Source of the DNA: Shigella phage sb4
DNA: 64,000 bases
Strand: one strand, 5' to 3'
Sequence record: PQ666542
Under the pieces are notes generated by a model. That model ran no database searches and was not told the origin of the DNA. It was given only the letters and a program-made list of their open reading frames with translations. A program made the translations under genes and the position numbers. The number at the start of each line of letters is the position of its first letter. Position 1 is the stretch's first letter. This document shows positions 3,114-3,285 of this stretch, one piece after another.

Positions 3114-3227
3114 TCACATAAATCCAAAGTAAGCGTTTAATACATCAATCATTAAAACGATTGGGAATATACTCAAAACTACTAGTATTATAACTACATT
3201 CCATATAGCTTTAACAATCTTTTTCAT
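3114..3227 (-). CDS. small membrane protein, 37 aa
   Basis: ATG at 3225-3227 preceded by GGAGG; downstream of early promoter; hydrophobic. Confidence 0.5.
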   Translation of the reverse strand: MKKIVKAIWNVVIILVVLSIFPIVLMIDVLNAYFGFM

Positions 3228-3255
3228 TTTCTGTTCCTCCGTAGTTGATAGGGTA

Positions 3256-3285
3256 ATAATACCACAGAGGAACAGTCTTGTAAAC
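3256..3285 (-). promoter_or_regulatory. T4-type early promoter (-35 GTTTACA, 17-bp spacer, -10 TATTAT)
   Basis: complement of tgtaaac at 3279-3285 and ataata at 3256-3261; part of 61-bp exact repeat also at 54573-54633. Confidence 0.55.

Follow-up and report, generated by a model that had tools for sequence, protein, structure and literature searches.

Why does the genome of a phage carry one and the same stretch of sequence at two sites that are 51 kb apart, and what might this sequence do at either of them? The question is raised by a 61-mer found in the window, which refers to the entire 64,000 nucleotides of Shigella phage sb4 (PQ666542) that were analysed in this study. As stated in a preliminary description, the repeat is exact, with two occurrences on the plus strand (3225-3285 and 54573-54633) that do not differ at any position. 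A third copy is absent from the window with up to three mismatches allowed, and no match was found in 100 dinucleotide-preserving shuffles, consistent with a chance expectation of none. The maximal exact match extends over 63 nt (3223-3285 and 54571-54633), with 66 of 67 positions matching between 3223-3289 and 54571-54637, and it constitutes the longest exact direct repeat of the window. The next-longest exact direct repeats, with lengths of 32 nt (8256-8287 and 51627-51658) and 29 nt (20756-20784 and 59956-59984), are also early-promoter modules on the minus strand. Promoter cassettes that form sub-families of nearly the same sequence are therefore typical of this genome in general. A near-exact direct repeat between 29693-29792 and 56002-56101 (77/100) also comprises a minus-strand early-promoter module.

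The window belongs to a Tequatrovirus, a T4-like phage that shares ~97% identity with Shigella phage pSs-1. The two sequences run collinear from an identical start coordinate, and nearly all genes of the window are located on the minus strand. As written, its sequence is not that of a viable phage. When compared to pSs-1, 89 genes (41.6 kb) align indel-free to coding sequences, 21 of which contain a total of 25 premature stops within 50 kb, with almost no indels and with DNA polymerase, clamp loader and endonuclease VII among the affected genes. Further details of genes with a premature stop relative to pSs-1 are:

29880-32576: gp43, split into 713 + 177 aa
5839-7911: rIIA
188-1516: gp52

Since these stops extend to essential genes, we conclude that the window sequence contains ~1% random-looking substitutions, which overlie a natural divergence from pSs-1 that is biased towards third positions and which reflect either sequence noise or a deliberate perturbation. 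Neither copy of the repeat is hit by such substitutions.

The functional reading of the repeat is on the minus strand (GTTTACAAGACTGTTCCTCTGTGGTATTATTACCCTATCAACTACGGAGGAACAGAAAATG), where each copy has the appearance of a T4-type early promoter, with GTTTACA followed by 17 nt, TGgTATTAT, a leader, GGAGG and ATG. The features at the two sites are:

3223..3285, minus strand: copy 1 (S1), early promoter, leader, SD and start codon of ndd.4 (exact 63-nt match)
3279..3285, minus strand: -35 element of S1, GTTTACA, of the T4 early-promoter type (pattern and sigma-70 scan)
3256..3261, minus strand: -10 element of S1, TATTAT, preceded by TGg (extended -10; sigma-70 scan)
3261..3275, minus strand: 5' arm of S1, CTGTTCCTCTGTGGT, in the promoter spacer and complementary to the SD region (predicted fold)
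3231..3245, minus strand: 3' arm of S1, ACTACGGAGGAACAG, containing the SD GGAGG at 3236-3240 (predicted fold)
3114..3227, minus strand: ndd.4, encoding a 37-aa predicted inner-membrane protein (ORF; PHROG 3098, E 3e-21)
3762..3791, minus strand: next early promoter upstream of S1 (promoter pattern)
54571..54633, minus strand: copy 2 (S2), early promoter, leader, SD and start codon of nrdC.8
54627-54633 and 54604-54609, minus strand: -35 and -10 elements of S2
54609-54623 and 54579-54593, minus strand: predicted 5' and 3' arms of S2, with the SD at 54584-54588
54048..54575, minus strand: nrdC.8, 175 aa in relatives (PHROG 2274, E 1e-110)
56043..56072, minus strand: next early promoter upstream of S2, heading nrdC.10 (promoter pattern)

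In a comparison to the sigma-70 consensus, both copies score 10/12; their spacer has a length of 17 nt and the -10 element is preceded by TG, and in both GGAGG is followed, after 8 nt, by the ATG of the respective gene. Each is preceded by an A/T-rich upstream region, which directly adjacent to the cassette reads ATATTTTTAAAAAAGTT at S1 and AAGAAGTTTCTTTTAGTG at S2. The underlying pattern GTTTAC-N16-18-TANNAT matches 15 times in the window, in all cases on the minus strand, compared to 0.67 expected matches. The succession of -35, -10, leader, GGAGG and ATG in front of two unrelated genes (PHROG 3098 vs PHROG 2274) had been correctly recognised at the outset, whereas the initial assignment of both as small genes is appropriate for ndd.4 with its 37 residues but not for nrdC.8, whose 175-residue reading frame is truncated by premature stops in the window. 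There, two in-frame TAA stops at codons 41 and 105, identified by comparison of the translation to pSs-1, make it look like an ORF of 40 aa.

The start codon of ndd.4 (3225-3227, minus strand) initiates a protein that is identical to gp8 of pSs-1, a phage in which the sequence of copy 1 is also identical and where the downstream coding sequence is termed pSs1_008; the gene following copy 1 is annotated as ndd.4 in RB32, vB_SsoM_113 and T4. The proteins encoded by ndd.4 and nrdC.8 are unrelated to each other, and neither of them shows a match in Pfam. The two genes are located in distinct hyperplastic regions, ndd-denB and nrdC.x, and the gene content around both sites varies among relatives, with matches falling into two pieces and extra ORFs present in some phages.

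T4 early promoters were reportedly described by Liebig and Rueger in 1989. The two cassettes share with such promoters the GTTTAC -35 element, the 17-nt spacer, the TGn extended -10 element, the A/T-rich UP region and, in the consensus allele of the family, the conserved positions downstream of the -10 element (TACTATACAACTAT). Nothing essential distinguishes them, with the ndd.4-type allele containing a private segment following the -10 element (TATTATTACCC). In general terms, promoters of this class have been characterised as being of the UP/-35/TGn/-10 type and as having additional conserved positions (Hinton 2010, PMC2988021). The same kind of cassette has been published for T4-like phages under the name of PeSL, for promoter-early stem-loop (Arbiol 2010, PMC2839356; Comeau 2014, PMC4122927), and its PST/T4 consensus of TTTACW-N17-TAYWAT plus SD plus ATG (PMC4122927) is matched by both copies with TTTACA-17-TATTAT. 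The likeness further includes the A/T-rich upstream region, the stem-loop, the location between small ORFs in hyperplastic regions, the repetition around the genome and the proposed role as recombination linkers, and the ndd.4/.5 locus itself has served as a published worked example of PeSL cassette exchange (Comeau 2014, PMC4122927). With a predicted stem-loop that encloses the -10 element, the sb4 cassettes would fall into the subclass 'overlapping the -10 box' (Arbiol 2010, PMC2839356), whereas the PST/T4 figures place the stem just upstream of the promoter and refer to it as a terminator (PMC4122927). The sb4 cassettes differ also in their arms, which consist of the spacer and the SD region, in the missing U-tract, in a predicted effect on read-through translation, and in the exchange between distant copies, where the data indicate gene conversion and not the excision or insertion of cassettes. 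Judged by sequence, both copies thus display all structural features of PeSLs but not the one of a terminator. Another resemblance concerns the promoter/RBS elements that flank IP genes in T-even phages, which were reported by Repoila et al. in 1994 (described in PMC2839356 and PMC4122927) and which are similarly repeated, based on T4 early promoters, equipped with weak A/T-rich stems and thought to shuffle small genes, but which form local tandem arrays in the IP loci in contrast to the two-copy pair of sb4 separated by 51 kb. The kind of element is thus already known as T4 early promoter or PeSL cassette, and the repeat consists of two copies of such a strong early-promoter/ribosome-site cassette, which as such is essentially ordinary. 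A search of Rfam gave no match at gathering thresholds across the window, with only sub-threshold chance hits on the module. The early promoters at 3762-3791, 8256-8285 and 51627-51656 (minus strand) contain a self-contained hairpin, CCACAAGGA(C)TGTGG, in the spacer between -35 and -10 elements, which corresponds to the PeSL subclass 'between -35 and -10' and does not involve the SD.

A pronounced feature of both copies concerns the complementarity between promoter spacer and SD region. In an 81-nt sense RNA covering either copy, the two segments are predicted to form a 15-bp helix closed by a 15-nt loop that contains the -10 element, which for S1 is present in both the minimum-free-energy and the centroid fold. 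The calculated energies of -23.4 (S1) and -29.6 kcal/mol (S2) correspond to z-scores of -4.8 and -5.5, and none of 200 shuffled sequences folds equally well; overall, the folds of the sense strand range from -23 to -30 kcal/mol with z-scores between -4.8 and -5.8. The predicted probability of the SD being paired to sequence preceding the transcription start is 1.00 for both copies, a value reached by at most one of 200 shuffles. Conversely, an RNA starting after the -10 element, as expected for a transcript from the cassette's own promoter, is predicted to be unstructured (-2 kcal/mol). The antisense strand folds more weakly (z ~ -2) because two of the 15 pairs are G.U, and the size of this difference favours a role at the level of RNA rather than DNA.

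The conservation of the predicted helix was investigated in 11 aligned variants, in which 98.2% of its cells are paired. Ten pairs are invariant and three vary on one side only, always towards another standard pair (C-G to U.G, U.G to C-G and G-C to G.U), while only the two terminal pairs are ever broken and the loop varies at six columns. Two-sided compensatory changes were not found among these variants and shuffles reproduced the observed value, so that covariation is statistically nil within Tequatrovirus, and we have discarded column-wise covariation as support for the helix. Both arms are partly constrained for other reasons, since the 5' arm ends with the TGG of the extended -10 element and the 3' arm includes the SD GGAGG. 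Within this shallow clade, the predicted helix is conserved but statistically unproven. Beyond it, independent support is provided by nrdC.8 orthologues with 68-85% amino acid identity, which are preceded by different cassettes where the SD is again predicted to pair with promoter or upstream sequence. In JS98-like phages, the spacer TCTCCAGTAG would pair with CTACTGGAGG in a different register, and in another clade of nrdC.8 orthologues it is the UP region that is predicted to pair with the SD. A second source of independent support is a cassette with similar properties within the window:

13405..13464, minus strand: third cassette of the same architecture but unrelated sequence (dG -25 kcal/mol, z -6.0)

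This cassette heads a gene of 166 aa just downstream of dexA, and its spacer TTCCTCGGTTAGTTGTGGT is predicted to pair with its own SD region and to enclose the -10 element, with a probability of 1.00 for the pairing of the SD to pre-start sequence that was not reached by any of 200 shuffles. It is one of only three cases among the 14 early promoters tested (S1, S2 and 13464) where such pairing exceeds the level of shuffles, and the mean over all 14 promoters (0.55) equals the shuffled baseline (0.58). We have thus rejected the idea that an anti-SD spacer would be a general feature of T4 early promoters.

The authors of the PeSL studies have interpreted the stem-loop as a transcription terminator or attenuator, which insulates the cassette from upstream transcription, and when they inserted the stem-loop of a phi1 PeSL in front of lacZ, downstream of a promoter, expression was cut to about the same extent as by rrnB T1 (PMC2839356). 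For the cassettes described here, we consider this function unlikely. Downstream of the helix there is AAAAUGAAAAAG or AAAAUGAACGCU instead of a U-tract, its loop comprises 15 nt, and it is not called by a terminator scan. Moreover, its 3' arm is constituted by the SD, suggesting a function in translation and not in termination. The true terminators of the window have a different appearance, with C(UUCG)G hairpins preceding a T-run. Hairpins of the GGGCC-UUCG-GGCCC type, with C(UUCG)G tetraloops on the sense strand and adjacent T-runs, are located at 4645-4662, 4875-4899, 10156-10180 and 32636-32660, and further ones at 34581-34605, 39291-39315, 42929-42956 and 56102-56121. They represent the classic intrinsic terminators and RNA-stabilising hairpins of T4.

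If the helix does not terminate transcription, it may instead act on translation by hiding the SD, provided that RNA from upstream promoters extends across the cassettes. On the minus strand, the terminator scan detected no terminator-like site between 3762 and 3285 and no credible one between the nrdC.10 promoter and 54633, the sole hit upstream of S2 being a weak 5-pair stem at 55874-55860 inside the nrdC.10 coding sequence. Since no credible terminator intervenes, read-through RNA is plausible at both sites. Such RNA, originating from an upstream early promoter, would include the spacer and form the 15-bp helix, which would bury GGAGG. Host sigma-70 RNA polymerase starting from the cassette's own promoter would initiate ~7 nt after the -10 element, thereby generating an unstructured and translatable leader that lacks the 5' arm and exposes the SD. 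Each gene would consequently be translated mainly from transcripts of its own promoter, and we infer that this SD-hiding mode of action is likely at S1 and S2. In T4, early mRNA contains the intergenic GGAG of nrdC.8, which serves as its SD. Together with a second intergenic GGAG, this site is 'moderately' cleaved in vivo by RegB, an enzyme that is inhibited by secondary structure (Durand et al., PMC1702504). A moderate cleavage would fit a mixture of open and closed leaders but does not constitute proof. Since RegB acts on early mRNA, the cleavage is also an indirect indication, and the only one, that the promoter may be active right after infection with host RNA polymerase in its unmodified form.

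The predicted arrangement is reminiscent of the T4 genes e, soc, 49 and I-TevI, whose SD is sequestered on long transcripts (PMC3014915). In both cases the SD would be part of a helix whose 5' arm is located upstream of the start of an internal promoter, and for the known genes it is only the transcripts of this internal promoter that are translatable. However, the internal promoters of these genes are late (or middle) and their purpose is a temporal delay, whereas the promoters in sb4 are early and the effect would be an insulation between neighbouring early cassettes. The resemblance of the modelled structures to this mechanism is thus one of geometry only. As a tentative extension, which we regard as possible rather than probable, a subset of T4-type early cassettes could be 'self-licensing', with a spacer that doubles as anti-SD and restricts translation to RNA from the own promoter. 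If correct, these cassettes would be insulated translationally rather than by terminators, and the need for a match between spacer and SD would explain why the unit from promoter to ATG is conserved, mobile as one piece and homogenised by conversion.

How, then, did the two copies become identical in sb4? In most relatives, the cassettes of ndd.4 and nrdC.8 share 54-56 of 61 positions. The S2 sequence of pSs-1, vB_SsoM_113 and T4 is a variant with 6-7 differences in 61 positions, where TACTATACAAC replaces TATTATTACCC around and after the -10 element and where the last position of the stem is C instead of G. The replacing segment is the general consensus of the family, whereas the replaced one is otherwise confined to the ndd.4 site; TACTATACAACTATC equally represents the family consensus, and the window contains it at four further promoters. 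When each site was queried separately, with flanks of 20 nt, the ndd.4-type allele at nrdC.8, as present in the window, was recovered in ~10-17 of 475 records. The reverse state, in which ndd.4 has the consensus loop, was recovered in at least 29 of 505 records. These numbers are approximate, as they derive from identity bands of megablast searches in INPHARED and count some phages twice owing to parallel GenBank and RefSeq records. We relied on INPHARED for these counts because scans of IMG/VR gave only 4-8 loci each. The state of the nrdC.8 site observed in the window is also found in the complete genomes of vB_YepM_ZN18, ECO07P4 and vB_VIPECOOM01-03, which led us to reject an assembly artefact as origin of the identity.

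Direct inspection of sequences from 15 phages revealed 13 distinct variants, which form a patchwork of alleles. Across relatives (~500 genomes), every combination of -10/loop alleles with stem-arm alleles is found at both sites, and alternative 5' arms are present with either loop. In ECO07P4 the two alleles are swapped relative to pSs-1, the nrdC.8 site of KarlGJung is a mosaic combining TATTAT with ACAAC, and the ndd.4 site of T4 and wV7 is one combining TACTAT with TACCC. A comparison of flanks places the window-type allele at nrdC.8 on at least three backgrounds. The two cassettes, which are clearly paralogous in every Tequatrovirus examined, are by all appearance old paralogues. The presence of all allele combinations among ~500 genomes indicates ectopic gene conversion, and the simplest account of the observed patterns would be a recurrent conversion of short tracts in both directions, followed by a spread via allelic recombination. 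In sb4, the ndd.4 copy would have overwritten the nrdC.8 copy in a tract between 29 nt, as delimited by diagnostic positions, and 66 nt, as delimited by the first differences in the flanks. The patchwork could in part also go back to no more than one or two ectopic events, with subsequent allelic recombination during co-infection by different phages. Evidence for concerted evolution was not found in distant clades, where a 22-mer of the nrdC.8 cassette from JS98-like and related phages is single-copy per contig, and at this stringency these clades thus have no pair of paralogues. As a whole, the locus is probably best explained by paralogous cassettes of the PeSL type that are subject to gene conversion, with the hiding of the SD as their likely mode of action.

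With respect to the fate of the repeat, the preliminary description had emphasised homologous recombination leading to deletion or duplication. In principle, the two copies could undergo a crossover, as the 63-nt direct repeats exceed the ~50 bp needed by T4 recombination (Singer 1982, cited in PMC2839356), and in RB49 and phi1, crossovers between PeSLs were shown to excise nearby ORFs as mini-circles (PMC2839356). In the case of sb4, the products would be inviable. The 51-kb interval encodes, besides others, gp43, gp41, gp61, gp45, gp44/62, gp55 and gp46/47, and thus DNA polymerase, helicase, primase, clamp, clamp loader and late sigma factor, so that its deletion would be lethal owing to the essential replication genes it contains. 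T4 headful packaging accommodates ~102-103% of the genome length, and a 51-kb duplication could therefore not be packaged intact with terminal redundancy. For both reasons no junctions are expected, and this is what we have found with chimeric queries of 141 nt, which combine the flank of one copy, the module and the flank of the other: among 50,697 phage records, ~500 from Tequatrovirus were matched, none of which covered 80% or more of either the deletion or the duplication query. The deletion junctions that had been suggested as a signature in related genomes are thus absent from these ~500 records, and it appears quite improbable that the main significance of the repeat is that of a substrate for deleting or duplicating the 51 kb. 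What stands of the original proposal is that the copies exchange sequence, as indicated by the allele mosaics, although by short-tract gene conversion. The repeat appears to recombine, but the outcome that survives would be conversion.

An equally doubtful reading regards the identity as ancestral, the result of a recent cassette duplication from which most relatives would have diverged by point mutation without conversion. The clear paralogy of the two sites throughout the examined members of the genus would be compatible with such an origin. In contrast, the identical state at nrdC.8 is rare (~2-4% of records) and resides on several flank backgrounds, the five clustered differences correspond to the family consensus at other promoters and therefore look copied rather than accumulated, and both reciprocal and mosaic states exist, all of which argue for conversion between the two paralogues.

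Finally, a function of the inverted repeat as DNA, either as operator for a DNA-binding protein or as cruciform or recombination target over the promoter, is very improbable, although its arms flank the -10 element in a classic operator position and Arbiol et al. have speculated on a protein recognising PeSL stems (PMC2839356). The G.U pairs of the sense RNA (2/15) correspond to A-C mismatches both in DNA and in the antisense strand, and variants found in nature alternate between C-G and U.G. In addition, the sense strand folds far more stably than the antisense strand (z ~ -5 vs ~ -2), and distant orthologues retain the pairing of the SD in another register and with another sequence, which would not be tolerated by a sequence-specific protein site.

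Collectively, what our analysis adds to the known elements is the recognition that the cassettes of ndd.4 and nrdC.8 are a pair of paralogues which conversion would keep alike throughout the genus, and the predicted SD-sequestering geometry. Neither would come as much of a surprise to a T4 specialist, and little changes if both are true. In sequenced genomes, exchange between the distant copies appears to take the form of conversion rather than of deletion or duplication. If the helix between spacer and SD is functional, some 'PeSL stem-loops' would be translational insulators rather than terminators, a role that is not discussed in the PeSL papers, which do not address translation (PMC2839356, PMC4122927), and that would refine the view of how small early ORFs are expressed in the hyperplastic regions of T4-like phages.

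Two observations concern the annotation of the genes at these sites. In a study of the defence system DRT1 published in 2026, nrdC.8 mRNA was reported to be notably down-regulated in DRT1-expressing cells and the gene was treated as nucleotide reductase (PMC13275509), a function for which Pfam offers no support. In pSs-1 (NC_025829), a 37-aa coding sequence annotated as 'gp9' (3212-3325, equivalent to 3211-3324 of the window, minus strand) crosses the promoter cassette. Other phages have ndd.5 (99 nt) annotated upstream in its place, and the call in pSs-1 is probably spurious.
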